In this document: one piece after another, positions 10,721 through 64,000 of the stretch
Position numbering within the stretch: position 1 is the stretch's first letter
Layout of the letters: each line of letters begins with the position of its first letter
Source of the DNA: an uncultured bacterium
Lineage (GTDB): Bacteria > Babelota > Babeliae > Babelales > Vermiphilaceae
Length of the DNA stretch: 64,000 nt
Direction of reading: 5' to 3'
NCBI GenBank assembly: GCA_963701085.1
Contig: OY969561.1
Span: 480,001-544,000 of the forward strand
The notes under the pieces: model-generated
Databases searched by the model: none
What the model was told of the DNA's origin: nothing
The model's input: the letters and a program-made list of their open reading frames with translations, nothing else
Program-made: the position numbers and the translations under genes

Positions 10721-10786
10721 CCGCTCGCCCTGAGCCTGTCGAAGGGAAAAGCGCTCTAATATTTCAACAAGTTCAATATGAGCGCA
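10721..10786. repeat. Palindromic repeat family A, inverted pair with degenerate right arm
   Basis: CCGCTCGCCCTGAGCCTGTCGAAGGG...TTCAACAAGTTCAATATGAGCG. Confidence 0.85.
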
Positions 10787-10889
10787 AATTCAACATGATT
10801 TGCAAAAAAATGTGTGGTATACTAAAGTATCTGCAAGTAATAATGATGCATAAGCACTCTCTGCTACCAATAGTTTTTTAGGTAATATA

Positions 10890-11369
10890 ATGAAAATTCG
10901 AAGAAAAAAAGGTTTCTTTTCTATTTCAGCCGTTGCCAAAATGTTTTCCGTTCATCAACAAACAGTACGCTTGTATGAAAAACAGGGCCTTATCAGCCCC
11001 AAACGATCATCAGGTAATACCCGCCTTTTTTCTGAAGAAGATATTGATCAATTAGAAGAGGTTATCTACCTGACACATGAAATGGGAATCAATTTAGCCG
11101 GTGTTGAGATGATCTTACGCCTCAAGAAGCAGATCAAAAAGATGCAAAATGAGATGAACAAAATATTTGATTCTACGCAGCAAGAGCTTGATCAGGAGAA
11201 TGAGAAATCAAAAGATATCGTACAAAGCAGCTATCAACGCCTTTTACGACTTAAAAATAAAAGTAATGCACCAGCAACACCAGATGCTCCAGTAAAAAAG
11301 GATGCTGATAATGACTCACAAGATGGCACCGTGGATGTTGACAACTGGGAAATTGAGTACGAGGATTAA
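10890..11369 (+). CDS. hspR: MerR-family regulator, HspR-like
   Basis: SISAVAKMFSVHQQTVRLYEKQGLISPKRSSGNTRLFS and GINLAGVEMIL. Confidence 0.8.
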   Translation: MKIRRKKGFFSISAVAKMFSVHQQTVRLYEKQGLISPKRSSGNTRLFSEEDIDQLEEVIYLTHEMGINLAGVEMILRLKKQIKKMQNEMNKIFDSTQQELDQENEKSKDIVQSSYQRLLRLKNKSNAPATPDAPVKKDADNDSQDGTVDVDNWEIEYED

Positions 11370-11500
11370 AAATCACATAAAACTTCACGTAATAGCACAA
11401 TTACACCAACTTTCTCAAAAATGTTTTCATAAGGGCACACAATAGTGCAAGGTTAAAAAAGAGTAGGGTGTATAAATTCCTCAATCACGAAAGGCTTAGT

Positions 11501-11968
11501 ATGAATAACGATTCATTTTCACACGACAGCAACTCACAATTCGCACTTTCGTATGAACTACTTCATTTATTACAATGGCTTGGACAAAACGATGTTGACA
11601 AACTGAAAAAAATTATCTCCAAAGCCGTTGCTCACGGATTGCACAACAACATACAAAAATCTACAACGCTACCTGACCCTAACATTCTCGAAGATATGCA
11701 TCACAGCATTATCGATTTTTTTGAACTTCTTGATACACTTCTAGCTGATGCAATTAGTGATCATGTAGAACAAAAAGCACGCGAGAAAAACCTTCTTCCT
11801 ACCATTGATCATTTTGATTCATCATTATTGGATGACAACACGCTGCGTTCGAGCGTTGAAAACACAACAAAAAAATTGGATCTCAACCCACACATGAATC
11901 CAAAAGAACAGCTTTGCAAAGAGTTTCTTAAAAAATGGAAGCCCGTCAATAAAGAAAGTATACATTAA
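11501..11968 (+). CDS. Hypothetical protein
   Basis: Open frame of about 155 aa downstream of hspR. Confidence 0.7.
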   Translation: MNNDSFSHDSNSQFALSYELLHLLQWLGQNDVDKLKKIISKAVAHGLHNNIQKSTTLPDPNILEDMHHSIIDFFELLDTLLADAISDHVEQKAREKNLLPTIDHFDSSLLDDNTLRSSVENTTKKLDLNPHMNPKEQLCKEFLKKWKPVNKESIH

Positions 11969-11983
11969 ACCGATATTTTAATG

Positions 11984-12057
11984 CCGTTCGTGCTGAGCCT
12001 GTCGAAGCATATGAACTAAATTATGTTCGCTCACTTCGACAAGCTCAGTGCGAACGG
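11984..12057. repeat. Palindromic repeat family A, complete inverted pair between convergent genes
   Basis: CCGTTCGTGCTGAGCCTGTCGAAGCA...CTTCGACAAGCTCAGTGCGAACGG. Confidence 0.9.
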
Positions 12058-12114
12058 GATTGGAAAATACCTGCACAAACAAAGTTTTTTTACGTTCGCA
12101 CGAACGTAAAGGGA

Positions 12115-12726: not shown

Positions 12727-12815
12727 ATAGATAAACTTTTTTCTTTAGTCCTTCGAAGCTTTTAAAAAAGCGGAGTAGGATTGAATTTTTTTAATCTCAA
12801 GAGTACACTTAAAAC

Positions 12816-13280
12816 ATGAATTATCAATACTATACTAAGACCAAAAACATTTTTGTACCTCAAAATCAACAGATCGTCCTTGTTGGTGGCTGCTTTGATA
12901 TCATTCATTTTGGACACATACAATTTTTGGAAAAAGCAAAGCAAGCTGGTGATTATCTTGTTGTAGCACTTGAACCAGATGAGCGTATTATCAACCACAA
13001 ACACCGCACTCCAATTCATACACAAGCAGAACGTGCTCATAATCTATTAGCACTACGCCATGTTGATCACATAATTATGTTACCAATGTTATATGGATTT
13101 CAAGATTATCTTGATCTTGTACAAACAATCAAACCACACGTTATTGCAATAACCAATGATGATCCACAACTACCCAACAAACAAAAACAAGCTGACGCGG
13201 TTGGCGCACAACTTGTTACGGTAACTGATATGATTGGAAATTTTTCAAGCTCAGCGATATTTCAAGATTTAATGATTTAA
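12816..13280 (+). CDS. Cytidylyltransferase-family nucleotidyltransferase (RfaE-II/RibL/TagD-like)
   Basis: GGCFDIIHFGH, GDYLVVAL, ERAHNL, SSSAI. Confidence 0.85.
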   Translation: MNYQYYTKTKNIFVPQNQQIVLVGGCFDIIHFGHIQFLEKAKQAGDYLVVALEPDERIINHKHRTPIHTQAERAHNLLALRHVDHIIMLPMLYGFQDYLDLVQTIKPHVIAITNDDPQLPNKQKQADAVGAQLVTVTDMIGNFSSSAIFQDLMI

Positions 13281-13292
13281 AAATTAAAGCTA

Positions 13293-14244: not shown

Positions 14245-14270
14245 TCCTTCGACAAGCTCAGGATGAGCGG
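14245..14270. repeat. Palindromic repeat family A single unit next to tRNA 3' end
   Basis: TCCTTCGACAAGCTCAGGATGAGCGG. Confidence 0.85.
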
Positions 14271-14280
14271 TAGTGAAAGC

Positions 14281-14354
14281 TGGCTGGGGCGGAAGGATTC
14301 GAACCTCCGATCGTAGGACCAAAACCTACTGCCTTACCGCTTGGCCACGCCCCA
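14281..14354 (-). tRNA. tRNA-Gln (anticodon TTG)
   Basis: Minus strand TGGGGCGTGGCCAAGCGGTAAGGCAGTAGGTTTTGGTCCTACGATCGGAGGTTCGAATCCTTCCGCCCCAGCCA; cloverleaf, GTTCGAA, CCA end. Confidence 0.97.
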
Positions 14355-15714: not shown

Positions 15715-17129
15715 CTATTCTATTTGCGATGCTTTAACACCATTCTTTGTTGTCAACATTGAAACTAAATTTTCAAGACCAATTGCATGCGATCCTTTAA
15801 CCAAAATAGCTGGTTTTGCATCGAGCTCACTTTCAATTTTTTGTGCAGCTTCTTGCCATGATCCAACTACTTCAACACGTAGTCCCACTGGTGCTGTTTT
15901 TTTAACCCAAGCAACCAAGTTGCCCACTAAAATAACTTTATTTAATGAAGGAACTTTACGCAGGAAGCGCCCTACTTGTCTATGCCAAAAAGGACTATTA
16001 ACACCTAATCCAAGCATATCACCAAGAATAGCAATTTTTGGTGACTTTGTCTCTATTTGTTGAAACGCCAACAATGCCGCCTTCATACTCTCTGGATTAG
16101 CATTATAACAATCATTAATTAAGGTGCCACGATCACCATTCACCAAGCGCTCTTCAAAGCGACCTTCAACAACGCATGGCTTTTGAATCGCTTTAATAAT
16201 AATGTCATCAGAAACACCCAACCAATGAGCCGCAGCTGTTGCAGCAAGAGCATTAAAAACTGCTCCAATATGCGGGTGATCCAAAACAATGGAATGTTTA
16301 TTTTTATATATTTTAAGCATAAAGCTAATATGGGCTCCGGATACTCTCATTTTTCGTGCTTGAATCTGATTTGTCGTCTTTGATCCAAACTTAATCACCG
16401 GATGCTGATAAGAAACACTGGCAAGAATTGGCTGATCACCATTAATAATACCAATGCTATTTTCAGTGAAGTATTTAAAAACATCACGTTTTTCAAGCGC
16501 AATATCATTGAGTGACCCAAGACCATCCATATGCTGATGACCAATATTGGTAATTACCGCAGACGTTGGACGTAATAAATGAGAAAGCTCAGCCATTTCC
16601 CCACGTTTACTAATACCAAGTTCAAAAATAGCCAATTCGTGATCCGTTCTCATGCGAAGCATATTTAATGCAAGGCCAATTTTTGTATTTTGATTTCCAT
16701 GAGAAACAAGATATTTTTTGCCTGCATGCGTCATAATTTGAGCAAGCATTTCTTTGGTAGAAGTTTTTCCAACTGATCCAGTAATAGCAATAACTGGATA
16801 ATCAAACTGTGAACGCCAATGTGGCAGCAAGTTGAACAAGCGCCTCAAGAGGATCTTTAACCAACAAGAACTAACTTAGATTCAAGCCCTTTAATTGTGC
16901 TGAGAACATCTTTTTTTGATTCAGCAATAATCACTCCTGCTGCACCCTTTGCAAATGCTTGCGCAACAAAATCATGCCCATCACAATCAGCGCCTTTTAG
17001 AGCAACAAAAATATCTCCCGCTTGCATCCCACGTGAATCAATAGAGAATGTTGCATTCTCTGGAAAGTGCCCGAATGCAATCGACACTTCAGGCAATGTT
17101 TTAGTTATAAAAGAGCTGTCAAATCGCAT
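15715..17129 (-). CDS. murF: UDP-MurNAc-tripeptide:D-Ala-D-Ala ligase MurF, frameshifted near 16820-16865
   Basis: N part IDSR...DIFVALKG...DGHDF; C part AITGSVGKTSTKE, NDCYNANPESM, LGDMLGLG, LVKGS; two apparent 1-base insertions at the junction. Confidence 0.9.
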
Positions 17130-17283
17130 TGATAATCTCCGTTGAAAATAAAAAATACTACTACACCCAAATCTATATAAAAAAACTATTATATGTGCTG
17201 CTAAACGTTCGTCTAATGGCACTAAGATCTCTTTTTTTTTAACATTTGTCAAGGAACGCAGGATAAAGTAATAAGATAATATG

Positions 17284-19716
17284 TTAACGAATTACTTTTC
17301 TTGTCTTTCCCCCATCCTGCGGCATAATGAGTCCTTGAGACTCAAGCATATCAATAATACGCGCTGATCTATTATAACCAATGCGAAACTTTCTTTGCAG
17401 TAGGGAAATAGAGATTTCATCAATCTCATTTAAAAAATTACGAATATCATCATATAAAACATCATCTAGTGTTGCTCCATCTTGCCCTTGCAATGATGTC
17501 ATCTGATGCATATCAAGATATTCAACTTTTCTTTGCTGCCTAATATGATCCGCAACCTGCTCAATTTCTTGATCAGAAACATATGCTCCATGTACTCGTC
17601 TTAATTGTGATGTTGCCGCATCAAGAAACAGCATATCGCCCCTACCTAATAAACGATCAGCTCCCATTGTATCTAAAATAGTACGGGAATCAATACGTGA
17701 TGCAACTCTGAATGATATTCTACTCGGAAAGTTTGCTTTAATTAAACCGGTAATCACATCAACCGAAGGCCGCTGTGTTGCAACAATCATATGAATTCCC
17801 GCTGCACGTGCCATTTGCGTAATACGAGTAATAAGATCTTCAATATCACGCCCGGCGGTAATCATCAAATCCGCCAACTCATCAATCACCACCACAATAA
17901 ATGGCAACATACTTGTTTTCTTAGTTCATCATCCGCGCTCATTCTGAATCTGTTGCAAAATCGCGTATTATAATCCCCAATATTACGCGCGCCACATTTT
18001 GCCATTTTTTCATAACGTTCTTCCATTTCTTGCACCACCCAACGCAACACGGGAGCTGCATGTGCGGGACTCGTGACAATAGGAAACAACAAATGTGCAA
18101 TATCGGTAAATGCGGCAAACTCTAATCGTTTAGGATCTATCAAAATAAGTTTAAGTTCATCGGGGCTTAATTTACATAACAAACTTATCAAAATGGCATT
18201 AATGCTACCGATTTTCCTGATCCTGTTGAACCTGCAATCAAAAGATGTGGCATACGTGCTAAATCAACAACCACAGCCTCTCCAATGGTGCCCTTACCAA
18301 GAACAAGCGGCAAACTACCAGAAAACTGTTGCGTATACTGGAGATGTTGCCACTTGTGAAAACAGTACATCATTACGCGTTGTATTTGCAACTTCAAACC
18401 CAACAACTGATCTTCCAGGAATTGGCGCAATAATACGAATACTCATCGCTTGCAACGCCATAGCAAGATCATCTTCCAGCGCAATAATTTTACTCAATTT
18501 TGTATCAATATCCGGTTGATATTCAAACAACGTCACAACAGGCCCACGCTTAATGGCAACCACTTCACCATGTAACCCCAAACCGTTTTAATTTATCTTG
18601 CAAAACTTGTGCACGCTCTTGTAACTCTTTTTCAACATTACGATCTTCTTTAATGTCTTTCTCAGCAATAAAAATATCCATGTGCGGCAATGCGTATCGT
18701 GAAGTTTTTTTAGATATGGTTGGCAATTGCTTTTCATGCTTTGCTTTTTGCACACGCACGGAAGCTGTATATTCACTCATATCATTATTCACTTTCTTAT
18801 CCACTGCATGCCTCAATGATATTAATGGAGGCACAAGATTTAGCTTCAATCTACTGACTTTGTTCTTTCGCGCTCGTCCTGAACTTGTTGAAGGATATCC
18901 TCGAGCGCCAGAATATAAAACCACGTAATTTATTGATACTTCATCAAACTGAATCTCATCCGACCGGTCAGCGTCCCATTGCTGCCCAAAGTCATAATCA
19001 TCGTCAGGATGTAACAAACCTGTCTCATCAAATGCCTCACCATCAAGTAACGATTGAACAAAATGTACAAAAAACCTTGGCATCTTCAAAAAAACAGCAT
19101 ACATACATACGCCAACAGCATGCACCGTTTTGCTGACAACATGATATTTGCACATCAATGCATACGCGGCCAAAACCGCCCACATGGCATACTGAAACAA
19201 AAACATAAATGACCAACGGAATAATAAAATAAAACTCGCGCAGAGGCTACTATATAAAAATAACATGCGTCCAATGGGGTCAAAATAATAAACAAGTGCG
19301 TTTGCAAAGCGTAAGCCTACCATCCCACCCGGATAAGGACTTACGGCAACATCCATAGAATAAGCAGCCAGCAATGCAGCACCAACAAATACTAAATATA
19401 CAGAAGCAAACAAGCGTTCCCATTCATTTTTCATTGATTTTTGGGTAAAAAAAATGAATCCCCCACATAATAATGGAATCAATAGTAAAAAAGATGCCCC
19501 TCCAAAAAGGTAAAAAAGTATTGCTGCGAATTGCGCACCAAGAAAACCACCTGTGTTGGTGATAGCTTCCGGATCACTTGAAATATATAACCATGAACTA
19601 TCAGTCACGTTATATGAAACAAGAGACACTACCAAAAAAATAATGGTTGCCGTATAAAAAATAGCACCACCATACCAAAACGTCCTATTTTTTTCATGAA
19701 AAAACCTGTTCATCAA
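17284..19716 (-). CDS. ftsK: DNA translocase FtsK (4TM N-domain, motor, gamma), split by several frameshifts
   Basis: Fragments in order: TM region, [71 protein letters not shown]. Confidence 0.93.
18869..18908. repeat. Family A repeat in-frame inside ftsK linker
   Basis: CGCGCTCGTCCTGAACTTGTTGAAGGATATCCTCGAGCGC encodes [14 protein letters not shown]. Confidence 0.85.
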
Positions 19717-20097
19717 AAATCTCCCATAAATTTTTTAGAAATTTTCCATTTTTTCCACCATCTTGAAAGCTCCACCCCATGATGAAATATAAAATAATTT
19801 TACAAAACAACCTAGCAACAAAGGGATATTAGTGCGTTCAATAAACGTAAAACTCCTTCCACAGCATAATTACTTATAATTTTTCTTTACAATTTGGATC
19901 TGACAATACTATATTGTACAGTGATACGAAAATATGTTTGAATAAAAAAATAAATAACATAATTCAATGAAAGGAGATATCGCGCATAAAAAAAGTAGTG
20001 TACGTTAAAAAATTTCACTTGCCTTAATAAAAAAAGGGCGTGAAATTAATGGATCAGAAATATCTAAGATTGAGTAATGAGTAAAAGGAGTTTAATT

Positions 20098-22098
20098 ATG
20101 AAACAATATTCAAAAAAATTGTTTTCATTAGTTGTGCTTTGTAGCACAGCAACAATCGCACTCGCTGACTGCTGCGATAACGACGACAATGGTAACCACG
20201 TTGTACCATTTATCCAATGGCGTTCACAAGGTAGAAACATGGCTCGTAAGTTAGAAGGAACAACGAGCTTTGCTGTTTACCAAGGCGACATGGATAACAA
20301 CTATGGTACATTCAATATGACCGTAGAATACGACCAATCTTTCAGAGGCAAAAACATTGCTGAATGTCTTTTTGGTAACAGCTTAGTAACTGCACCAGCA
20401 GCACCAACAAATAACAGCTGCAACAATGACTGCGACAATAGTTGCAACAGCACTCTCATAATTTCTGGTAAAAATACTGCAACAAGAGCAGCAACAGATT
20501 GGTTGGCAGAAAACTTCCTGCTTCCACGTGATTTCAAAAGTGCCATTTCCTTCAGTCCAAAAGTTCAAAGCGTAATAGTTGATTTTAACTTATTCGTTGG
20601 ACTTGATAGATGGGTAAATGGTCTTTATTTCAGATTATACGGACCAGTTGTTTGGAACAAATCAAGCTTACGTGCTAATGAAACTATAATCAACCAAGGA
20701 ACTGTTGCCGGTGGATCATATTCACAAGGTTACTTTGATGCTGATGCTCCTGTAGCAAGCACATCACTTTTCCAAAGCGCACTCAATTTCTTTGGTGGAT
20801 GCCAACTTCCAAAATATACTGACCAAAATGTTGTAGTCCAACCATTGAATTTTGCAAAATTCTCTGATTGCAATTTCAATGCAAACAACAACAATAACAG
20901 CTGTGATAATGATTGCAACGGAACATCACATCACAAAACAGGATTTGCTGAATTACGTGGTGAATTTGGATGGAACTACATTCAAGAAAAATACCGCTTA
21001 ATGTTGAACATCCAAGCAGCAGCTCCAACAGGAACTCGTCCAAATGCTGAATTCCTATTGCCAGCATACGTTGGTAACGGTAAGCATTGGGAACTTGGTG
21101 GTGGATTTGGTGGAAGTTGGAAAATGTGGGGCAGTGAAGATGGTGAAAAATCATTCAACTTTATCGTTGAAGCTGATATAACTCACTTATTCAAAGCAAA
21201 ACAAAAAATGACCTTTGATCTCAAAGGCAAACCAAACAGCCGTTACATGCTTGCAGAACAACTAGTAACTCCTGCAGCTGACGACCAACTTGTTCCTAAT
21301 ACTCCAACGTTTGATGTAAACGGCAAAGGGCTTTACATGCCAGTTGCAAACTTCAGTACACGTGATGTAAAAGTTGGCTTTGGTGTACAAGGTGATGTTG
21401 TTGCAATGTTCAACTACACACACCGCAACTTCTCATGGGATATTGGATATAACTTCTGGGGCATGTCATGTTCAGAAGTCAGCCTTTCTTGCGATGACAA
21501 CTGCAACGACTCAGATGATTGCAACCCTATAATAATTCCATTCCCTGCAAACATGGCGCTTAAAGGCGATGCGAGCATAGCTGGTTACAATGAAAATGCT
21601 CTTCTACCACCTACCGAATTTACCTTTGGTCTTGGTGCAACAGAAAGCAAAGCAACAATCTTTACTGGTACTAATGTTGGATTCGCAGCACCAGCAGGAC
21701 TTTCTAACCCTGGCATAGACAATCCAATTCCTGCAGTAGCTGCAGTTGGATCAGCAAACCCTGGTCCTTTATTTGTATTTGGTAATATTGGCACTGAAGT
21801 AATCAACACATCTAACCCGCCAGTGTTCATATCTATCGATGATCTTGATGTAGAAGGTGCTGAACAACGTGGACTTTCCAACAAAGTGTTCACTCACTTC
21901 AACTACACTTGGACAGATCGCGATAAATGGGTTCCTTATGTAGGTGTTGGTTTTAGTGCTGAATTTGGTAAGCATAGCGGTAATGATGATTGCTCAACAA
22001 CACCAGTTACAACATCATCAAATGATTGCTCTAGCTGTCACAGCTGTGCATTATCTCAATGGGGTGTTGAAGTTAAAGGTGGCGTATCATTCCACTAA
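20098..22098 (+). CDS. Paralog family member 2, Cys/Asn/Asp-rich, possible major outer-membrane protein
   Basis: AAGGAG SD, signal peptide, family motifs, ends SQWGVEVKGGVSFH. Confidence 0.85.
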   Translation: MKQYSKKLFSLVVLCSTATIALADCCDNDDNGNHVVPFIQWRSQGRNMARKLEGTTSFAVYQGDMDNNYGTFNMTVEYDQSFRGKNIAECLFGNSLVTAPAAPTNNSCNNDCDNSCNSTLIISGKNTATRAATDWLAENFLLPRDFKSAISFSPKVQSVIVDFNLFVGLDRWVNGLYFRLYGPVVWNKSSLRANETIINQGTVAGGSYSQGYFDADAPVASTSLFQSALNFFGGCQLPKYTDQNVVVQPLNFAKFSDCNFNANNNNNSCDNDCNGTSHHKTGFAELRGEFGWNYIQEKYRLMLNIQAAAPTGTRPNAEFLLPAYVGNGKHWELGGGFGGSWKMWGSEDGEKSFNFIVEADITHLFKAKQKMTFDLKGKPNSRYMLAEQLVTPAADDQLVPNTPTFDVNGKGLYMPVANFSTRDVKVGFGVQGDVVAMFNYTHRNFSWDIGYNFWGMSCSEVSLSCDDNCNDSDDCNPIIIPFPANMALKGDASIAGYNENALLPPTEFTFGLGATESKATIFTGTNVGFAAPAGLSNPGIDNPIPAVAAVGSANPGPLFVFGNIGTEVINTSNPPVFISIDDLDVEGAEQRGLSNKVFTHFNYTWTDRDKWVPYVGVGFSAEFGKHSGNDDCSTTPVTTSSNDCSSCHSCALSQWGVEVKGGVSFH

Positions 22099-22168
22099 TA
22101 ACGGATGCTCATTATTGTTGTAGCGTTAGGTAAATTACCTTAACAAAGCAAACAAAAAACGAATACTC

Positions 22169-22198
22169 AAAAAGGCTTAGCTCATGCTAGGCCTTTTT
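22169..22198 (+). terminator. Intrinsic terminator
   Basis: AAAAAGGCTTAGC-TCAT-GCTAGGCCTTTTT. Confidence 0.8.
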
Positions 22199-22210
22199 GC
22201 TTTTGACCCT

Positions 22211-22382
22211 CCTCCTACGCCAAGGCTTCGGCGGACAGGCAATTTTCATTACGCTTCAGTCGGGGACCCCATTATCCTTCGATACATTTTTGAAGACAAA
22301 AACACTCAGGATGAGCGGAAGAAAAAATAATTTGTACCTTACGCCGCTCGCCCTGAGTGCCCCGTAGGGGCGTATCAAAGGG
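22211..22382. repeat. Repeat cluster: family B unit (22211-22240), GGGGACCCC motif, two family A units with hairpin-expanded loops
   Basis: CCTCCTACGCCAAGGCTTCGGCGGACAGGC; TCCTTCGATACA..CACTCAGGATGAGCGG; CCGCTCGCCCTGAGTGCCCCGTAGGGGCGTATC. Confidence 0.85.
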
Positions 22383-22459
22383 TTTACAAAGATGATGCAA
22401 TCGTACTATATTAGGCCATAAGAAATATATGTATCACACACTTAAGGAGTAGAGAGAGT

Positions 22460-24283
22460 ATGAAGAAACAATCACACAAGTTATTATTATTAACCGCAAT
22501 TGCGTATACTGCTGGAATCCATGCATGTGCCGCTCCAACAGAATTCCGCGTAGCACCATTTGTGCAATGGCGTTCACAAGGCAGAGACACCGCACGTAAA
22601 TTAGTAGGCACCACCAGCCACCATGTCTACTTACATGATATGGAATCATTTTATGGCACCTTCAACATAACCCCACAATACGATCAAACGTTCAGAGGAA
22701 AAGAACTTGCTGAATGTTATTTTGGATCAAGTTTAATTAATGATGAAACACTCACTATCACCGGTACTGCAGCTACCCCAACTAACATAACCAGAGATTG
22801 GATGGCAGAAAATTTCTACCTTCCACGTGATTTTAAAAGCACCATCACCTTTGCACCAAAAGTCCAAGACTTTTTAGTTGATTTTAATCTCTATGTCGGC
22901 CTTGATGAATGGGTTAAAGGTATGTACTTCAGACTTTATGGCCCAGTCGTCAACAACAGAGTAAGCCTCCACCCATGTGAGAATATAGAACAAGAAGGAA
23001 CCATTGGATATGCCGCAGGATTTTTTAGTCAAAATACCGTTCCGGCAAACACATTACTCCCATCAGCACTTGCATTTTTCAGTGGAAACACAACCATTGT
23101 TGTTCCAACAATTATCGCTGATCCTTTATTAAAATCAAAAATAGCTGATCACAAAAAAAGTACTACAGGCTTTGCTGAATTGCGCGGTGAATTTGGATGG
23201 AACTATCTCGATGAAGATTACCACGTTGGATTTAACGTACAAGCAGCTGCACCTACCGGCACGCGCCCACACGGCGAATTTCTTTTTGAATCACAAGTTG
23301 GTAACGGTAAACATTGGGAGCTTGGCGTGGGCTTAAGCGCGCACTGGACAATGTGGCGCAGTGAAGATGATGAACGTCATCTTGATTTTGTTTTTGAAGC
23401 GGACGTCACTCACTTATTTAACGCATCACAACAACGCACTTTTGATCTTATTGGTAGACCAGACAGCCGCTACATGCTCGCTTCTAAAATGAATCTTAAA
23501 CCTACCACTAATCTTTTTGGTAATACAGAACCAGATCTTGGTATTACTGGCACCATAACACAAGCATCATCACAATTTAACGCTGAATATTCTCCGGTGG
23601 CAAACTTCAGCACCCGTGATGTTGACGTCAGCATTGGTGTACAGGGTGATATTGTTGCCATGCTCAATTACACTCATCATGGTTTTTCATGGGATCTTGG
23701 CTACAACTACTGGGGTATGTCACATGAACATATTGAACTGCGTGATTCAGACTGCGCACCAGTATTCCCTGCAAATACCTGGGCACTCAAAGGTGATGCG
23801 CAAACATATGGTTTTATAGCAAATGCCGCAACTGCCGTTCCATTATCTGGCACAGAAAGCCTTGCAACTATTCATCAAGGAACCAATGTTCTCAAGGCAC
23901 CTACTGCTGCCAACACAAATCCTGGCGTTGATAACAATCAATTTGCACAAGATATGGCCAACGGAGGCGATATACTGACTGTTTCTCCAAATACCGCTAC
24001 TCCTCAGATTCAAACTTCTATTCAACCAATATTCATTACAGCAGATGATCTTAATATAAGCGGCGCGGAAACTCGTGGATCATCAAACAAACTGTTTACC
24101 CACTTCAGTTATACATGGGTAGACCGTGAAGATTGGATTCCATATCTTGGCATTGGTGGCGAGGCTGAATTTGGCAATACCAGTCAAGATGATAATAATG
24201 ATAGCGGTTCTTGCGATAATGGTATCAGCTGCGCATTATCTAAATGGGCCATTCTTGTTAAAGGCGGCGTATCATTTGATTAA
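22460..24283 (+). CDS. Paralog family member 3 (closest to member 2)
   Basis: QWRSQGRDTARKL, AENFYLPRDFKS, GFAELRGEFGWNY, SKWAILVKGGVSFD. Confidence 0.85.
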   Translation: MKKQSHKLLLLTAIAYTAGIHACAAPTEFRVAPFVQWRSQGRDTARKLVGTTSHHVYLHDMESFYGTFNITPQYDQTFRGKELAECYFGSSLINDETLTITGTAATPTNITRDWMAENFYLPRDFKSTITFAPKVQDFLVDFNLYVGLDEWVKGMYFRLYGPVVNNRVSLHPCENIEQEGTIGYAAGFFSQNTVPANTLLPSALAFFSGNTTIVVPTIIADPLLKSKIADHKKSTTGFAELRGEFGWNYLDEDYHVGFNVQAAAPTGTRPHGEFLFESQVGNGKHWELGVGLSAHWTMWRSEDDERHLDFVFEADVTHLFNASQQRTFDLIGRPDSRYMLASKMNLKPTTNLFGNTEPDLGITGTITQASSQFNAEYSPVANFSTRDVDVSIGVQGDIVAMLNYTHHGFSWDLGYNYWGMSHEHIELRDSDCAPVFPANTWALKGDAQTYGFIANAATAVPLSGTESLATIHQGTNVLKAPTAANTNPGVDNNQFAQDMANGGDILTVSPNTATPQIQTSIQPIFITADDLNISGAETRGSSNKLFTHFSYTWVDREDWIPYLGIGGEAEFGNTSQDDNNDSGSCDNGISCALSKWAILVKGGVSFD

Positions 24284-24307
24284 TACTTGCACAACATGCA
24301 ATGAGAT

Positions 24308-24335
24308 AAGGCTGAGCTTATGGCTCAGCCTTTTT
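24308..24335 (+). terminator. Intrinsic terminator
   Basis: AAGGCTGAGC-TTATG-GCTCAGCCTT-TTT. Confidence 0.8.
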
Positions 24336-24343
24336 AACGATTA

Positions 24344-25231: not shown

Positions 25232-25410
25232 CTCCCATTATTAAATTTTAAATAATAGCAATATGTCATCATATTCAATTATGCAATAATCTAAAGGGGT
25301 GAGTCAAGACAAACAACTTTTTTCATCTTTTTTATCGACCATTGCCTTTTTTTAGCCAACCTGCTAATGCTAATACTGTACCAATGAGCGCTTTAAAAAA
25401 AGGAAAACAC

Positions 25411-27192: not shown

Positions 27193-27198
27193 TATGTT

Positions 27199-29034: not shown

Positions 29035-29074
29035 AGGCATTTAAAAATGAAATGCATTAAAAAAAGGAATTTAC

Positions 29075-54490: not shown

Positions 54491-55810
54491 TCACTGCGCA
54501 ACCCACATACCCGTAAAATCTTGTGCTACAACACCATCAAGTTGTAAGTTAAACAGCTCATTTTGAACTAATTCAGACGTTAATTGTGTGCGCATGATAA
54601 TATCATCAAAAGAAGTTGGCTGCTTACATGCTGCGATAATTTGTTTTTGCTGCTCAGAGCAATGCTCCTCCTTCGCCAAGGCTTCGGCGGACAGGGCATA
54701 CTTATTATCATCACTTTTTATATCAGTTTTTTGCGCTGCAACAAAAGTATGCAGCGTTAACTGCGCTGCTTTATCTCGAATTTTCTGCCTATCAGGCAGC
54801 ACAAGCCTGTCACCAAATTCAGTCAAAATATCGGCGCTGTTCATGACAAGTTTTGCACCATTTTGAATTAACGCATTGCACCCAGCACTCAATTCACTGT
54901 CAAATGGCCCCGGGACAGCAAACACTTCTCTGCCTTGTTCCATTGCATAATGCGCTGATATGAGTGCACCACTTTTTTGTGCTGCTTGAACAACCAAACA
55001 TCCGTGTGACAGTCCGGTAATGATACGATTGCGCGCAGGGAAATTTCCAGGGAGCCCTTCCATGGTTAATGGAAACGCGCTCACTACCAACCCGCCCCGA
55101 TCAACAATAGATTCGAATAATTTTTTATTTGAAACTGGATACACATTTAATAATCCGGAACCAAGCACTGCAATAGTTTTGCCACCATGATCTAATGTTG
55201 CTTGATGCGCCATGGTATCGATACCACGGGCACCACCGCTGACAATGGTATAGTGTGCGGCAACAAGATCCGGTACTAATGCATTAACAGCATGCTGCCC
55301 ATAATTATCCGCTTTACGCGCACCAACAATTGCAAGTAATTTTGAGGATAAACCCTCTTTATAATTACTCTGATTTTTTCCTGTGCGCTCGCCCTGAACT
55401 TGTTGAAGGGTATCTTGGAGCGCGCTTAATCCTTCAACAGGTTCAGGATGAGCGCGGAAAGAAGCAATACCATGTGCCACAGATAACACACCTTGCGCGT
55501 AAATCACTGCCGGAGCCAAATAAATTTCACGCAGCAACGCGGGATACGTATCATCTTCAACAGTTGCCCATTGAATGTTGTGACGTTCAATTAAATCAAG
55601 TTCGTAATCGAGAATTTTTTTATTCTGCAGACCATCAGACAATTTTTGCGCAGTAAGTTCAGTGAACCCACACGTGCGCATCCAGTCTGATGCAGAAAAG
55701 AGATAAAGATCTGATACCGAAATATCAGATCTTTCTAGAATTCTTTGAATAATTGCAGGGCCAATATTTTCTATTAATGTGAGGTGGAGAATAAAATTTT
55801 TGTTATGCAT
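54491..55810 (-). CDS. dprA: DNA-processing protein DprA with two in-frame repeat-derived inserts
   Basis: AIVGAR, VSGGARGIDTMAH, FPARNRIITGLS, SGALISA, GREVFAVPG; true start likely MHNKNF at 55810. Confidence 0.95.
   Translation of the reverse strand: MHNKNFILHLTLIENIGPAIIQRILERSDISVSDLYLFSASDWMRTCGFTELTAQKLSDGLQNKKILDYELDLIERHNIQWATVEDDTYPALLREIYLAPAVIYAQGVLSVAHGIASFRAHPEPVEGLSALQDTLQQVQGERTGKNQSNYKEGLSSKLLAIVGARKADNYGQHAVNALVPDLVAAHYTIVSGGARGIDTMAHQATLDHGGKTIAVLGSGLLNVYPVSNKKLFESIVDRGGLVVSAFPLTMEGLPGNFPARNRIITGLSHGCLVVQAAQKSGALISAHYAMEQGREVFAVPGPFDSELSAGCNALIQNGAKLVMNSADILTEFGDRLVLPDRQKIRDKAAQLTLHTFVAAQKTDIKSDDNKYALSAEALAKEEHCSEQQKQIIAACKQPTSFDDIIMRTQLTSELVQNELFNLQLDGVVAQDFTGMWVAQ
54667..54696. 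repeat. Family B repeat in-frame in dprA
   Basis: CCTCCTTCGCCAAGGCTTCGGCGGACAGGG, near-identical to intergenic 22211-22240; encodes LSAEALAKEE. Confidence 0.9.
55385..55456. repeat. Family A inverted pair in-frame in dprA
   Basis: GCGCTCGCCCTGAACTTGTTGAAGGG..TCCTTCAACAGGTTCAGGATGAGCGC; encodes RAHPEPVEGLSALQDTLQQVQGER. Confidence 0.9.
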
Positions 55811-55829
55811 ATATCTTTTGATGTTTGCA

Positions 55830-56013
55830 CCCTTCGATACATCCCTACGGGACACTCAGGGCGAGCGGTTGGGTATATAATCTTTTGTCTTCCGCTCATC
55901 CTGAGTGTTTCGTCTTCGAAATGTATCGAAGGATCAGGGCGAGCGGTTAGGCAATATAATCTTTTTCTTCCAGTCATCCTGAGTGTTTTTGTCCTCAAAA
56001 ACGTATCGAAGGA
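55830..56013. repeat. Family A cluster between gyrA and dprA, overlapping the gyrA stop
   Basis: Alternating CCTTCGATACA..CACTCAGG and CATCCTGAGTG..TATCGAAGGA units. Confidence 0.88.
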
Positions 56014-58643
56014 TCTTCATCTTCATCAATATCATCCGCACCATCTTCTTCATATTCTAAATCAGAGGCTGCTTCTTCATTCTCTTCATCTTGCTCATCT
56101 TCCTCGTCATCACCCTCTTCTTCTTGTTCACTCGGATCTGCCACCGGCAATGTACGAGTTTCAATGACAACACCAGATTCATCATCAACCGGTGTATCTT
56201 CGCCACCTTCAAACGCAACAACATTGTGCAGTTTTTGTGTAGCATCAAGTCTAATCAGGCGAACACCCTTTGCTTGGCGTCCCATTGCGCGAATATCTTT
56301 AGCAGAAAGACAAATAATTTTACCTGCTTGATCAATGAGTAAGATATGTGAATCTTCATGCACAATTGCAAGACCAATCACCACACCATTACGTTTATCA
56401 GTTGGGATAGTTCTAACTCCCATACCACCACGATGGGCAATACGGAAATCTGCTATGCGTACTTTTTTACCAAATCCGTGTTCAGTAGCAAATAAAATTT
56501 CACCATGATCGGCAATAATTTCCATACCAATAACGCGATCATCTTTCTTAACACGAATACCCATCACGCCGCTTGCTTGACGCCCCATACAGCGAACTTC
56601 AGTTTCATTAAAGCGAATTCCTTGCCCCTTTGATGTAGCAAGAACAATAGTATCAGTACCAGTACTCAATGAACAGAACACAAGCTCATCGCCCTCACGC
56701 AACGTAATCGCACGGATACCAGTTGCACGAATTTTTGAAAAACTAGACGCATCAGTACGTTTAATAATACCTTCACGCGTAACCATGACCATGAACTTAC
56801 CTTCCATATCACGAGAAGGTAGCAGTTTAACCACATACTCACCATCTTGTAATGGCAGCAAATTAATAATTGCACGTCCACGAGCAACGCGAGACGCTTC
56901 AGGCACTTCAAAAGTATTTAAGCTATACACACGCCCCAAGTTGGTAAAGAAAAGTAACATGTCATGAGCTTTTGCAACAAACACATCCTGAACAATATCA
57001 CCTTCAAGTGCGGTGAGTCCCATTTTACCTTTACCACCACGGCGCTGTACACCAAACACATTAAGAGGAACGCGTTTAACATAACCCTTCATGGTAAGCG
57101 TAACAACCGCTTCTTCATCAGGTATTAAATCAGCTTCTGTTAGAATATCAATCGCACCTTCAATTTTTGTGCAACGCGTATCATTATAATTTGTTTTAAT
57201 ATCTTCTAACTCTTTAACAATTTCTGCTTTGAGAACTGGTTCGTTCTCAAGAATAGATCTCAAATACGTAATTTTTGTTTTAATCTCAGCCATCTCAGCA
57301 TAGATCTTTTCTTGCTCAAGGCCGGTCAAACGCTGTAAGCGCATTTCCAAAATAGCTTTTGCTTGTTTTTCTGATAACAAGAACCTTTTATTGAGCAATG
57401 CAATTGCTTCATGTGCCGTTGGTGATTTTTTAATCAATGCAATTACTTCATCAATGGAATTCAATCCTATAATAAAGCCTGCAAGCAAGTGTTCACGTTC
57501 TTGAGCCTTGGATAAATCAAACTGCGTGCGACGGTAGATAATTTGCTGGCGATGATAAAGAAATTCGCTCAACAGCTGTCGTAATGAAAATACCAATGGC
57601 TGATTATCAAGAAGACCTAACATCAAAATAGAAACTGATGTTTGCAAATTGGTATGCTTGTATAACTGATTTAAAACAACGCTTGGAATTTCTCCACGTT
57701 TAAGATCAATAACAAGGCGCATGCCTTTTTTATCTGATTCATCTTTAATGTTAGAAATACCATCAATAATTTTATTTTTTACTAAATCAGCAATTTTGAT
57801 AGTCAAATCAGCTTTATTAACCTGATACGGCAATTCGGTAATAATAATGCTTGCGCCCTTATTTGCTTTTTCTTCAAACTCAGTAACGCCACGCAAAATC
57901 AGATTACCTCTACCCGTTTTGTATGCTTTTACAATCCCCGCGCGGCCACAAATAACACCGCCCGTTGGAAAATCTGGACCCGGAATATGCGCAAACAACT
58001 CTTCATCCGTAATAAATTCATTTTTAATCATCGCAAGAAGCGCATCAACAACTTCACCCAAATTGTGTGGTGGAATTGAAGTCGCCATACCAACAGCGAT
58101 ACCTGCTACACCATTTACGAGAAGATTTGGCAGCCTACTTGGCAAAACAATTGGCTCTACCGTTGATTCATCAAAGTTCGGGGTAAATGCAACGGTCTCT
58201 TTTTCTATATCCGCTAAAATTTCTTGTGCAATGCGCGCCATACGGACTTCAGTATAACGCATCGCCGCCGCGTTATCACCATCAACAGAACCCCAGTTAC
58301 CTTGTCCATCAAGCAATGGATAACGTTTAGAGAAATCTTGAATAAGCCCCACCATAGATTGATACACTGCTTGGTCACCATGGGGATGAAATCTACCAAG
58401 CACATCACCAACTACGCGCACAGATTTGTGATATGGTTTATTGTAAAAAAAACCAAGCTGATGCATTGTATATAAAATACGACGATGCACCGGCTTTAAT
58501 CCATCACGAATATCGGGTAATGCCCGACTCACCACAACGGACATTGCATAATCAAGAAAAGAATCTTTTAACTCTTTTTCAATTAAAATTGGTCTTATAG
58601 GTATATTTTTATTATTCACGATTAAAGTGGGACGTTCCATCAA
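55995..58643 (-). CDS. gyrA: DNA gyrase subunit A
   Basis: SRALPDIRDGLKPVHRR, HPHGD, AAMRYTE, GyrA-box QRRGGKG, acidic tail. Confidence 0.98.
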   Translation of the reverse strand: MMERPTLIVNNKNIPIRPILIEKELKDSFLDYAMSVVVSRALPDIRDGLKPVHRRILYTMHQLGFFYNKPYHKSVRVVGDVLGRFHPHGDQAVYQSMVGLIQDFSKRYPLLDGQGNWGSVDGDNAAAMRYTEVRMARIAQEILADIEKETVAFTPNFDESTVEPIVLPSRLPNLLVNGVAGIAVGMATSIPPHNLGEVVDALLAMIKNEFITDEELFAHIPGPDFPTGGVICGRAGIVKAYKTGRGNLILRGVTEFEEKANKGASIIITELPYQVNKADLTIKIADLVKNKIIDGISNIKDESDKKGMRLVIDLKRGEIPSVVLNQLYKHTNLQTSVSILMLGLLDNQPLVFSLRQLLSEFLYHRQQIIYRRTQFDLSKAQEREHLLAGFIIGLNSIDEVIALIKKSPTAHEAIALLNKRFLLSEKQAKAILEMRLQRLTGLEQEKIYAEMAEIKTKITYLRSILENEPVLKAEIVKELEDIKTNYNDTRCTKIEGAIDILTEADLIPDEEAVVTLTMKGYVKRVPLNVFGVQRRGGKGKMGLTALEGDIVQDVFVAKAHDMLLFFTNLGRVYSLNTFEVPEASRVARGRAIINLLPLQDGEYVVKLLPSRDMEGKFMVMVTREGIIKRTDASSFSKIRATGIRAITLREGDELVFCSLSTGTDTIVLATSKGQGIRFNETEVRCMGRQASGVMGIRVKKDDRVIGMEIIADHGEILFATEHGFGKKVRIADFRIAHRGGMGVRTIPTDKRNGVVIGLAIVHEDSHILLIDQAGKIICLSAKDIRAMGRQAKGVRLIRLDATQKLHNVVAFEGGEDTPVDDESGVVIETRTLPVADPSEQEEEGDDEEDEQDEENEEAASDLEYEEDGADDIDEDEDPSIRF

Positions 58644-61406: not shown

Positions 61407-61443
61407 TTGTGGTTATAAAATTAGCTCAATAAAGGATTTTTAG

Positions 61444-61623
61444 ATGGATTCAATAATTAATCGCGAATACCTAGCTCATGTAACACCAGAACTACTGAAA
61501 AAATTGCGATATATTGCCTTAATAGAAAGCATTGGCGCTTCTACACGGTTGGCTGGAGCAAAACTATCTGATAAAGAAGTAGAAAAACTGCTATCACAGC
61601 TGAAACCCCATAAAGATCAATAA
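61444..61623 (+). pseudogene. Fic-family N-terminal fragment (59 aa)
   Basis: LKKLRYIALIESIGASTRLAGAKLSDKEVEKLL resembles the ESIGSSTRIEG region; no HPFxxGNGR core. Confidence 0.65.
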
Positions 61624-61727
61624 ACCAACAGAATAGGCACATTTTACAACTCAGCCATATCTCTTTATACTTGTTCCTAAGGTTTTTCCCTTAAAAACAC
61701 CCCTAAAACCATTAGAATGAGAAACGC

Positions 61728-63548
61728 ATGAGTCAACGCATTCCCAATTTACAAGAATTTACCCCTGATAGAATCAGAAATTTTTCAATTATTGCCCATA
61801 TTGATCATGGCAAATCAACGCTATCTGACAGATTATTGGAAATATCAGGCACTATTACCGAACGGCAAAAAAAAGAACAATTTTTGGATAAACTCCAGGT
61901 AGAACGCGAACGCGGTATTACCGTTAAAGCGCAAACTGCATCAATGTTTTATGAATATAAAGGGGTAAAATACCTCCTTAACCTCATTGACACCCCGGGA
62001 CACGTTGATTTTACCTACGAAGTTTCCCGCTCATTATACGCATGCCAAGGAGCATTACTGCTCATTGATGCGGCACAAGGCGTCCAAGCGCAAACAATGG
62101 CCAACTTCTACCTTGCCTTTAATCAAGATTTGACCATTATTCCTATCATTAACAAAATTGATCTTCCCAATGCTGATATTGAAAAAGTAACCAATCAGTT
62201 TGTAAATCTATTCGATTTTAAAGCAGCGGAAGTCATTAAGGCATCAGCAAAGGCTAATATTGGTGTGACAGAGATCTTCCAAGCAGTGATTGAACGCATT
62301 CCAAGCTTGCACGTATCAGCCGATAAACCACTGCGCGCGCTGCTGTTTGATTCTTGGTTTGATGAATATCGCGGCGTAGTCTGCCTTATCGCACTCCATG
62401 ATGGCACCATCAAAAAAGGTGATATAATCTCTCTTGCACAAGCAAGCTCCAATTATGAAGTGCTAGAAGTAGGATTGATGTACCCAGAGCCAACGCCAAC
62501 CAACGTATTATATGCAGGCCAAGTTGGATACCTAATTACCGGTATGAAAACCATTAAAGAAGCCCAAATTGGTGATACCATTTACCACAACAAAAAACCG
62601 GTTGAACTATTTCCTGGCTTTAAACCAGCAAAACCAATGGTGTTTGCCGGCATATTCCCGGTGGATAGTGAAGAAATTGGCTTACTTGAGGAAGCAATTG
62701 AAAAATTAACACTCAATGATGCCAGCGTATCGGTGGAAAAAAAGACCTCTGCCGCTCTTGGTATTGGCTTCCGGTGCGGATTTTTGGGCATGTTACACAT
62801 GGAAGTGTTCAAGCAGCGCCTTGAACAAGAGTACCATTTATCAGTCATTGCAACCGCACCAAGCGTACTGTACCAAATAAAAATGGCCGGAACCGGCAAG
62901 CTTGTTGACATTGAAAATCCGTCAGATTTCCCTGAACGGAACTTTATTGAAGACATTCTTGAACCTATGATTGATGCAACAATCATCGTTCCCCAGCAAT
63001 ATCTTGGTAATGTTATTAAATTGTGCGAAGAAAAACGTGGCAGACAACAAAACCTTACGTACCTTGATGACACACGCGTCATCTTAAAATACCGCCTACC
63101 ACTTAATGAAGTTGCCATGGAATTTTTTGGTGATCTTAAGGGAATGAGCTCTGGTTATGCCAGTTTTGATTACGAATTTTCTGGTTATGAACCTGCAGAT
63201 TTGGTCAAAATGGATATTTTGCTCAACGGGAAAGCTGTTGACGCGCTTTCTATCATTATTCATAGAGATAGAGCCTTTTATATTGGTAGAGATCTCACGC
63301 AACGCTTGCAGAAGGTTATTCACCGCCAACTCTTTGAAGTTATCATCCAGGCAGCCATCGGAGCCAAAATTATTGCCCGGGAACGTGTTGCTCCATTGCG
63401 TAAAGACGTAACAGCAAAATGCTATGGTGGCGATATATCCCGTAAACGTAAGCTTCTTGAAAAGCAAAAAGAGGGTAAAAAGAAGATGAAACAGGTTGGT
63501 TCTGTTGAAGTACCCCAAGAAGCATTCTTATCCCTACTCAAGAAATAA
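61728..63548 (+). CDS. lepA: Translation elongation factor 4 (LepA)
   Basis: IRNFSIIAHIDHGKSTL, ERERGIT, DTPGHVDF, GFRCGFLG, KCYGGDISRKRKLLEKQKEGKK. Confidence 0.98.
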   Translation: MSQRIPNLQEFTPDRIRNFSIIAHIDHGKSTLSDRLLEISGTITERQKKEQFLDKLQVERERGITVKAQTASMFYEYKGVKYLLNLIDTPGHVDFTYEVSRSLYACQGALLLIDAAQGVQAQTMANFYLAFNQDLTIIPIINKIDLPNADIEKVTNQFVNLFDFKAAEVIKASAKANIGVTEIFQAVIERIPSLHVSADKPLRALLFDSWFDEYRGVVCLIALHDGTIKKGDIISLAQASSNYEVLEVGLMYPEPTPTNVLYAGQVGYLITGMKTIKEAQIGDTIYHNKKPVELFPGFKPAKPMVFAGIFPVDSEEIGLLEEAIEKLTLNDASVSVEKKTSAALGIGFRCGFLGMLHMEVFKQRLEQEYHLSVIATAPSVLYQIKMAGTGKLVDIENPSDFPERNFIEDILEPMIDATIIVPQQYLGNVIKLCEEKRGRQQNLTYLDDTRVILKYRLPLNEVAMEFFGDLKGMSSGYASFDYEFSGYEPADLVKMDILLNGKAVDALSIIIHRDRAFYIGRDLTQRLQKVIHRQLFEVIIQAAIGAKIIARERVAPLRKDVTAKCYGGDISRKRKLLEKQKEGKKKMKQVGSVEVPQEAFLSLLKK

Positions 63549-63550
63549 TT

Positions 63551-63770
63551 ATCAACCCCCTGGACCGGGAAAAAGAGAAATCCCCAACTTAGACCGTTGG
63601 GGGACCCAACCTACGTAAGAACTACGGTTAATTTACGTGGAGGTGTTCTTGTAAACACCTCCACACCTCCATACACCAATGTTCCCTTGGATTCCTTAAC
63701 GGGTTAAAAGCAAGGTCGCTGATCAAACCTGCTCCTGATCCCGCGACGGTTTGATGGCGACCGAGCCCCA
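63551..63770. ncRNA. Candidate structured non-coding RNA, family unassigned
   Basis: GC-rich intergenic stretch with stems at 63582-63602, 63637-63664 and 63714-63762. Confidence 0.45.
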
Positions 63771-63849
63771 TGTCATTTTAAGAAAAATGCCAGAAACTCG
63801 CTGGTAACCCTTCATGTACTTATTTAATTAATATTTTTATTTGTCCGCA

Positions 63850-64000
63850 CCCTTCGATACACCACTACGTGGCACTCAGGGCGAGCGGAGAGAAAAAACT
63901 ATCAAGGGAAAAGAAATTAAATATCTCTTTCTCATCACTTTCGTGATTATTTCCCCCCGCTCGCCCTGAGTGTTTTTGTCTTCAAAAATGTATCGAAGGG
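63850..64000. repeat. Two family A units with hairpin-expanded loops, inverted pair
   Basis: CCCTTCGATACACCACTACGTGGCACTCAGGGCGAGCGG and CCGCTCGCCCTGAGTGTTTTTGTCTTCAAAAATGTATCGAAGGG. Confidence 0.9.

Follow-up and report, generated by a model that had tools for sequence, protein, structure and literature searches.

The 64,000-nt stretch analysed here (hereafter the window; contig OY969561.1, positions 480,001 to 544,000, from an uncultured bacterium of the Vermiphilaceae, Dependentiae) harbours 28 copies of a small tagged hairpin repeat. These units are, in our judgement with reasonable confidence, repetitive extragenic palindrome (REP)-like hairpins of a family that spans many phyla, is linked to a GIY-YIG protein and would rely on a nuclease mechanism like that of the Ssn/NTS systems, in which, according to Chenal et al. 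(2025, PMC11893778), NTS/SRM hairpin repeats flank single-domain GIY-YIG proteins of family cd10448 (Ssn). Because copies flank a tiny GIY-YIG nuclease gene in other bacteria, the repeat is probably a new variant of these nuclease-plus-hairpin systems.

The census comprises 15 short (S) units, 11 long (L) units and two degenerate units; it combines a scan that takes the structure into account, inspection of the sequence by reading, and a search of the window with a covariance model. The core pattern has 19 matches in the window against 0.52 expected, with a maximum of three among 100 shuffles; this excess, together with the shuffled-pairing test below, ruled out chance or low complexity as the origin of the repeats. 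A first-pass annotation, made by a model from the letters alone, had described more than 20 units with a CGCTC tag and a stem-GA-loop-GA-stem layout in a range opening at 10721, and all of its examples were recovered at their positions; however, the first unit lies at 2878, and the CGCTC tag is missing at 29286 (a tagless unit) and altered in the CCGTTCG variants.

An S unit consists of a 7-nt tag ([GC]CGCTC[GA], at times CCGTTCG) followed by NNCT, GA, a 7-nt RCYTGTY segment, GA and AGNN. L units have the tag, stem and GA steps of the S type, and between GAG and CGA they carry TG, a hairpin of their own and YGTAT. The inner stems of these second hairpins are TTTTTG/CAAAAA, TTTCG/CGAAA, CCCC/GGGG, TCCC/GGGA, CCAC/GTGG, one longer stem and TTCTTCG/CGAAGAA, the last of which has a whole S unit at its tip. 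That the loop can be swapped for a second hairpin had been proposed before, and the instances named were verified (CCCC-GTA-GGGG at 22344, CCAC-GTA-GTGG at 63850, TTTTTG-TCCT-CAAAAA at 46689 and 55970, TTTCG-TCTT-CGAAA at 55892). Two segments, a 5′ CTGAG and a 3′ TCGAAG, are common to S units, L units and the variants found in other genomes. The unit is made up of an oriented 5′ tag CCGCTCR, a 4-bp stem NNCT/AGNN, a tandem G.A/A.G step closed by G-C (or A-T), and a free loop, which is 5 nt long in S units and gives way to a second hairpin in L units.

In the 15 S units, all 70 of the 70 stem cells form standard pairs, as compared with a mean of 80.2% after shuffling (0 of 500 shuffles reached the observed value), and four of the five stem pairs change on both sides. 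The covariation score was 0.677 versus 0.263 for shuffled columns, again with 0 of 500 shuffles reaching it, and the pairing signal was lost when the partner was shifted by one to three columns. The earlier proposal of a covarying outer stem is thus borne out by the pairing and the two-sided changes, and the stems quoted for it are all present: CCCT/AGGG at 10721, TCCT/AGGA at 14245 (minus strand), TGCT/AGCA at 11984 and TACT/AGTA at 47801. The further proposal that the inner pair covaries between G-C and A-T is supported independently across genomes; in the window the change counts as about one event, because it is tied to two tag subfamilies (GCGCTC with A-T, CCGCTC with G-C). Both GA steps are kept in 25 of the 26 S and L units; the tandem GA is not invariant, as had been supposed, for the L unit at 22344-22382 has AA on its 3′ side.

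With RNA parameters, the GA strand was computed to be more stable than its complement in 13 of the 15 S units and in 10 of the 11 L units (mean −2.23 versus −1.11 kcal mol−1 for S and −11.65 versus −8.90 kcal mol−1 for L); with DNA parameters, this was so in 14 of the 15 and 9 of the 11. The strand-specific fold postulated in the first-pass annotation is supported by this asymmetry and by the covariation in the window and in unrelated genomes. An extension of the stem through the tag was unsupported, with positions 4 and 24 forming A.C in 55 of 170 copies; as a strand test, the G.T versus A.C asymmetry (27 versus 62 with position 4/24 included) was left unused.

To survey other bacteria, species-representative genomes were scanned with the pattern GCTCRNNCTGARCYTGTYGAAG; the counts and the taxonomic spread given here are lower bounds. 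The 22-nt core is present in at least 130 stretches across many phyla, against approximately 17 matches expected by chance by our own arithmetic. Carriers among the matches listed are Sphingomonadales, Dehalococcoidia, SAR202 and other Chloroflexota, Acidobacteriota, several betaproteobacterial genera, Elusimicrobia, Planctomycetes, Thermodesulfobacteriota, Binatia, Anaeromyxobacter, Chlorobiota, Gottesmanbacteria, Saccharibacteria and one Dependentiae genome. The two bases 5′ of the searched pattern, which were left free, are C in 149 and 163 of the 170 listed copies, so that the matches are homologous rather than chance hits. Among the 174 distinct copies listed, both pattern-free stem positions are Watson-Crick in 154 (mean 43 and maximum 59 over 1000 shuffles), the commonest stem pair types being TC/GA (55), CC/GG (48), GG/CC (22), TG/CA (16) and GC/GC (10), and the inner pair is G-C in 165, A-T in five and unpaired or wobble in four. 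An inverted partner stands within 120 nt of roughly half the matches, with tags outward for 85 of the 191 listed and with tags inward for 38 of 191 (overlapping loci counted). One locus of 35% G+C (L042), probably of a Dependentiae relative, contains S dimers and an L-type unit, with 79-100% identity to the window over the repeats only.

Searches for a known family returned little. Rfam models matched the tRNA-Gln alone on the whole window and nothing on six unit-rich loci, and a lax Rfam search over 55350-56050 gave sub-threshold microRNA-type hairpin matches alone. Exact unit strings (DNA, RNA and peptide) met unrelated primers only in the literature, a search by which a consensus drawn in a figure could be missed. 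Literature queries joining GIY-YIG to REP terms had no direct match, and those on UPF0213, YhbQ and SsnA yielded nothing further of relevance.

The 5-kb flanks of 80 loci of the genome scan were taken, and genes near the repeats were clustered from 3930 stop-to-stop open reading frames (ORFs; 129 loci listed). A GIY-YIG cluster was the only family both recurrent and adjacent, the median distance to a unit being 19 nt in the four loci that contain it (L029, L035, L046 and L080); a fifth, frameshifted copy was recognised in L045 by tblastn and by profile. Other recurrent neighbours (GMC oxidoreductase-like, deacetylase-like and others) proved to be ordinary genes distant from the units. Genes for HUH or RAYT proteins, which the first-pass annotation had named as the other candidates to be sought beside dense copies, did not appear in this clustering, in which no Y1 Pfam scan was run, while its alternative of GIY-YIG genes flanked by copies was found in other genomes, with the units inverted.

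The partner protein is approximately 94 aa long with a single domain (Pfam PF01541, GIY-YIG). Among solved structures it is closest to 1ZG2 and 1YWL, which both bear the name UPF0213, and it is about 40% identical to Bacillus subtilis YazA; no NCBIfam model matches it. A protein-database search gave 3004 relatives at E up to 1e-5, and those named among the best 120 of the 3004 are Sphingomonadales or loosely labelled metagenome-assembled genomes of Alphaproteobacteria/Pseudomonadota. Among the same best 120, the terminal extensions of eight of the 13 homologs longer than 100 aa are translated repeat units.

The units are arranged around the gene in two geometries. In L029 the gene is bracketed by two arms that are perfect inverted repeats of 31 nt, each arm being a unit, and in L029, L035, L045 and L130 a unit stands on each side of the gene with the tags outward; in two Methylobacterium loci (L132 and L133) an L-type unit stands on each side with the tags inward. 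Around the nuclease gene, then, S units point their tags outward and L units inward. In a reciprocal, protein-first test (tblastn against plasmids, 15 records, with six plasmid or chromid homologs examined), three of the five proteobacterial homologs were flanked on both sides. The homolog of Sphingomonas parapaucimobilis is flanked by an S variant with the loop GCGAAGTC, and those of Methylobacterium bullatum and M. aquaticum by L-type units with tag CCTCA and the layout TCCT GA GGTG-hairpin-CCTC GA AGGA, tags inward. The yazA gene of B. subtilis is without flanking units.

Both geometries recur in the window, which holds nine inverted pairs (five S and four complete L). All five S pairs are (+)(−) with tags outward, and all four L pairs are (−)(+) with tags inward and a spacing of 25-70 nt. 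The stems differ between the two partners of a pair, which favours two small hairpins over one long one. Both geometries match those around the nuclease gene, the gene itself being absent, and the window pairs look like gene-less derivatives of flanked elements, as REPINs are of RAYT loci. The copies in the window are as follows.

2878..2903, plus strand: S unit with tag GCGCTCG, stem CCCT/AGGG and inner A-T, then a 3′ tag complement and a decayed second unit.
10721..10746, plus strand: S unit with CCGCTCG and CCCT/AGGG, located between divergent genes as the left half of a tags-outward pair.
10760..10785, minus strand: S unit with GCGCTCA and TATT/AATA, the right half of the pair with 10721.
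11984..12009, plus strand: S unit with tag variant CCGTTCG and TGCT/AGCA, the left half of a tags-outward pair.
12032..12057, minus strand: S unit with CCGTTCG and CACT/AGTG, the right half of the pair with 11984.
14245..14270, minus strand: S unit with CCGCTCA and TCCT/AGGA, on the strand of tRNA-Gln (14281-14354) and 10 nt downstream of it.
17935..17960, plus strand: degenerate S-like copy within the ftsK reading frame (motor domain; 18.7 bits, E 0.016).
18870..18895, plus strand: S unit with GCGCTCG and TCCT/AGGA, extended to 18907 by a 3′ tag complement; it is in frame within the linker of ftsK (minus strand).
22275..22318, minus strand: L unit with inner TTTTTG-TCTT-CAAAAA, the left half of a tags-inward pair.
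22344..22382, plus strand: L unit with inner CCCC-GTA-GGGG and 3′ GA changed to AA, the right half of the pair with 22275.
29286..29311, plus strand: tagless S unit with TCCT/AGGA, in frame within ORF 29075-31246.
42765..42790, plus strand: S unit with GCGCTCG, CCCT/AGGG and a 3′ tag complement.
42878..42900, minus strand: degenerate unit (GCGCTCG TCCT GAGCCTGTTCA...), convergent with 42765.
About 42909-42919: stray L 3′ end GTATCGAAGGG beside the degenerate unit at 42878.
44146..44171, plus strand: S unit with TCCT/AGGA, the left half of a tags-outward pair sharing the central palindrome CGAGCGCTCG.
44194..44219, minus strand: S unit with TTCT/AGAA, the right half of the pair with 44146.
45685..45724, plus strand: L unit with tag CCGCTTG and inner CCCC-GTTA-GGGG.
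46462..46516, minus strand: L unit with the long inner hairpin TCCTCC GAAGC TTTAT GCGAA GGAGGA.
46561..46634, minus strand: L unit with inner TTCTTCG/CGAAGAA and the S unit 46586-46611 at its tip, the left half of a tags-inward pair.
46586..46611, minus strand: S unit nested in the L unit 46561..46634.
46689..46732, plus strand: L unit with TTTTTG-TCCT-CAAAAA, the right half of the pair with 46561.
47801..47826, plus strand: S unit with CCGCTCG and TACT/AGTA.
55385..55410, plus strand: S unit with CCCT/AGGG, the left half of a tags-outward pair, within the over-long N-terminal part of the dprA ORF call.
55430..55455, minus strand: S unit with TCCT/AGGA, the right half of the pair with 55385.
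55830..55868, minus strand: L unit with TCCC-GTA-GGGA, the left half of a tags-inward pair.
55892..55933, plus strand: L unit with TTTCG-TCTT-CGAAA, the right half of the pair with 55830.
About 55934-55946, minus strand: tag-end fragment of another L unit, directly after 55892..55933.
55970..56013, plus strand: L unit with tag CCAGTCA and TTTTTG-TCCT-CAAAAA, supplying the last codons and stop of gyrA.
63850..63888, minus strand: L unit with CCAC-GTA-GTGG, the left half of a tags-inward pair.
63957..64000, plus strand: L unit with TTTTTG-TCTT-CAAAAA, the right half of the pair with 63850, ending at the window edge.

The window is about 37% G+C and carries ordinary bacterial genes (ychF, murF, rsmH, ftsK, gltX, plsX, dprA, gyrA, lepA and one tRNA-Gln). 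Its LepA shares 75-79% identity with proteins labelled Candidatus Dependentiae or Babeliales. The ftsK gene (17287-19734, minus strand) is split over five frame segments (0, 1, 2, 1, 0) and is either a pseudogene or affected by indel errors, and murF (15715-17252, minus strand) is read as two ORFs (16857-17252 and 15715-16848). Also on the minus strand, ankyrin-type repeats of 99 nt (33 aa) form a very long array at 33500-39800 that is divided among at least eight ORFs, which could be one giant decayed gene or several genes. On the plus strand at 20077-31246 lie five tandem paralogs of approximately 610-720 aa (repeat families D15, D17, D19 and D20; no NCBIfam match), with L and S units between and within them. 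The final codons of gyrA (…PSIRF) and its stop (55995-56013; the gene is on the minus strand and ends at 55995) derive from an L unit. Past the family model, the called gyrA product runs on for about 70 aa as a long acidic tail.

The spacer between the tags-inward L units of this region is duplicated (55869-55891 and 55947-55969) and contains TATAAT; because its second copy comes after a truncated L fragment, a local duplication of half an element is suggested. A short palindrome, GGGGACCCC or GGGGTCCCC, adjoins repeat units at 22266-22274 and about 42848-42856, and may be part of a different small family of repeats. Locus L039 (4885-5111), from a distant member of the Dependentiae, has a unit between two tRNA-Arg genes on the tRNA strand, and the S unit at 14245 together with approximately 35 nt after it resembles that region. 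The window unit by tRNA-Gln (14245-14354) is enclosed by a 7-bp stem, GCCAGCT/AGCTGGC. Synteny between the window and L039 is limited, with DNA-level alignment solely at the unit adjoining the tRNA gene.

By analogy with Ssn/NTS, the hairpin would form on one strand of transiently single-stranded DNA (ssDNA), where a nuclease encoded elsewhere in the genome would read the tag and the CTGAG...TCGAAG core and nick near the hairpin, an activity that could spread or maintain the repeats. A more specific form of the proposal, that the CCGCTCR-NNCTGAG...TCGAAGNN hairpins are the cognate ssDNA sites of a second, uncharacterised clade of single-domain GIY-YIG proteins near UPF0213/YazA/YhbQ and form with them an insertion sequence (IS)/REPIN-like system, strikes us as plausible, with a chance a little below even.

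Several observations weigh against the GIY-YIG-linked reading. Neither the window nor the 10-kb loci of the relatives L039 and L042 gave a match to the nuclease profile, and a GIY-YIG gene was seen in no Dependentiae among the loci examined; for the window, this emptiness and the flanked gene elsewhere agree with the first-pass annotation, which had placed the reader protein outside it. The link between gene and hairpin is made by eight loci (Sphingomonadales, Methylobacterium and one planctomycete), the units of L046 are one-sided, those of L080 form no clean inverted pair, and the homologs of S. paeninsulae and Cupriavidus (L131 and L134) are without units. No unit was seen to have moved. 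The S hairpin is weak by nearest-neighbour energies (mean −0.77 kcal mol−1 with DNA and −2.23 kcal mol−1 with RNA parameters). Moreover, bases of the tag and the first bases of the core are able to pair, giving a fold mutually exclusive with the hairpin; this pairing comprises five pairs in the seven G-C S units, six in 10 of 11 L units and three in the eight A-T S units, and is maintained via two-sided change in the Methylobacterium flanks (L132 and L133). Finally, two distant Dependentiae have a unit 3′ of a tRNA gene and on the strand of the tRNA, in keeping with a role as RNA.

An RNA element (a terminator, 3′-end stabiliser, processing signal or protein-binding motif built on the tandem G.A step in the manner of a kink-turn (K-turn) or K-loop) is the alternative to which this last point speaks. 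The units just 3′ of tRNA genes in the window and in L039, together with the tag-core fold that competes with the hairpin, lend some likelihood to an RNA or switching role. K-turn and K-loop motifs have tandem sheared G.A pairs beside a bulge or loop of 3 nt and are bound by a protein of the L7Ae type. T-rich runs follow several units (for example, 46561 on the minus strand), and the better folding of the GA strand with RNA parameters holds for S and L units alike. The CUGA-loop-GAAG arrangement may be akin to box C′/D′ K-loops, and a hammerhead or other ribozyme core (CUGANGA...GAAA) was not seen by eye. REPs in general have been proposed as RNA elements, according to PMC3733652. Yet the units face either way with respect to the genes beside them, and they also stand on the promoter side of divergent genes (10721/10760) and in frame in ftsK and ORF 29075; the two GA strands of every pair are on opposite DNA strands; no family in Rfam fits the units; and the recurrent neighbour carries a DNA nuclease domain whose characterised relatives are described as not binding RNA (PMC11893778). 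An RNA element is thus, in our view, an unlikely account of the family as a whole.

Equally improbable, we consider, is that the units are relics of GIY-YIG elements, now without partner or function, whose complementarity stems from master copies or palindrome repair. This would fit the lack of a nuclease gene in 64 kb and in the loci of two relatives, the decayed or truncated copies (those at 17935 and 42878, the 55934 fragment and the incomplete second unit past 2903) and the decayed look of other window genes. However, pairing is complete over all 70 S stem cells and both GA steps persist in 25 of 26 units, which would be hard to retain without selection or recent spread; the density is high (28 copies in 64 kb); and both unit types occur in L042, where the identity of 79-100% is confined to the repeats. 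Least credible of all, and very unlikely, is a classical REP/REPIN moved by an HUH tyrosine transposase (RAYT or IS200/IS605-type TnpA): the small tagged hairpins, inverted dimers of unlike partners, high copy number and mostly extragenic location are those of REPINs or bacterial interspersed mosaic elements, but the ORF clustering of the 129 loci, with no Y1 Pfam scan, gave no recurrent adjacent family except GIY-YIG, the tag is CCGCTCR rather than GTAG or CGTC, and the core sequence is kept across phyla.

If the more specific, second-clade form of the proposal is correct, the long-orphan UPF0213-like family would include site-specific, hairpin-reading ssDNA nucleases. The gene-plus-hairpin loci and the gene-less pairs would then constitute an IS/REPIN-like system over many phyla, including Dependentiae and candidate-phyla bacteria, and the recognition core would be the tandem G.A step, tolerant of any loop insert. 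The GIY-YIG-linked reading would give the UPF0213-like proteins a testable function and account for a repeat strewn through genomes from Sphingomonadales to Dehalococcoidia and Dependentiae. This would be one nuclease-hairpin pair with a very different and very compact hairpin whose loop takes whole extra hairpins. Translation of the repeat also yields spurious or extended ORFs, as in the homolog extensions, the gyrA tail and the inserts in ftsK and ORF 29075. For this genome, the dense intergenic repeats would represent mobile-element debris or nuclease sites, and not genes or regulators peculiar to the locus.

Among known systems, the REP/REPIN-RAYT loci as described in PMC3733652 share with the present family tagged extragenic hairpins, inverted dimers of unlike units, repeats that flank a single protein gene and occasional in-frame copies within genes, including genome-maintenance genes; their hairpins too are of high copy number, as are the 28 in 64 kb here, with nine pairs. 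They differ in that the flanked gene encodes an HUH tyrosine transposase there and a GIY-YIG nuclease here, and in that the tag here is neither GTAG nor CGTC and nearly the same core occurs in many phyla. The CGTC-tagged REPs (dRS3, RPE-4/6 and others), reported in 2013 to be without a dedicated transposase (PMC3733652) and later linked to Ssn (PMC11893778), resemble the family in their hosts (alpha-proteobacteria, deep-branching phyla and intracellular bacteria), their oriented tag and hairpin, and their occurrence mostly as dimers. Compared by text description (PMC3733652), they have an 8-9-bp stem that opens with complementary A/T residues, a 4-5-nt loop and a CCA tail, features that do not occur here; the present units, unlike them, have a 4-bp stem with a GA step and no CCA tail.

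The closest parallel is with Ssn/NTS itself, whose NTS repeats correspond to the CGTC-tagged REPs catalogued in 2013 by Di Nocera et al., where no transposase is reported for them (PMC3733652). As described in PMC11893778, Ssn proteins bind the repeats solely as ssDNA, on one strand, cut upstream and tolerate loop changes and extensions; site-specific nucleases confined to ssDNA were first described there in 2025, and the authors expect many nuclease-hairpin pairs of differing specificities. In supplementary data 4 of that paper, whose assemblies may differ from those examined here, M. aquaticum is scored NO in all four Ssn/cd10448 columns, M. bullatum NO/NO/YES/NO like B. subtilis 168, and two sphingomonads YES/NO/YES/YES, and the partner proteins look closer to UPF0213 than to the Ssn scored in the paper. 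The SRM motif HGTCWYN(0-2)YYVSBRHN(0-5)WNVSBRGN(0-2)RNCYNB had 0 matches in the window (mean 0.1 over 30 shuffles) and 0 around five nuclease genes, and CGTC with an 8-9-bp stem there stands against CCGCTCR with a 4-bp stem and tandem G.A step here. Shared by the two, so far as the published description goes, are a single-domain GIY-YIG protein of approximately 94 aa; a gene flanked by inverted 20-50-nt hairpin repeats in an IS-like architecture, here seen in related loci rather than in the window; flanking repeats that are also scattered in high copy number; an oriented conserved 5′ sequence on the hairpin (here CCGCTCR) with loop change and extension tolerated; and many host taxa, including Sphingomonadales and Dehalococcoidia-type genomes. 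The present family behaves like Ssn/NTS on every point tested here, yet it is not the same repeat.

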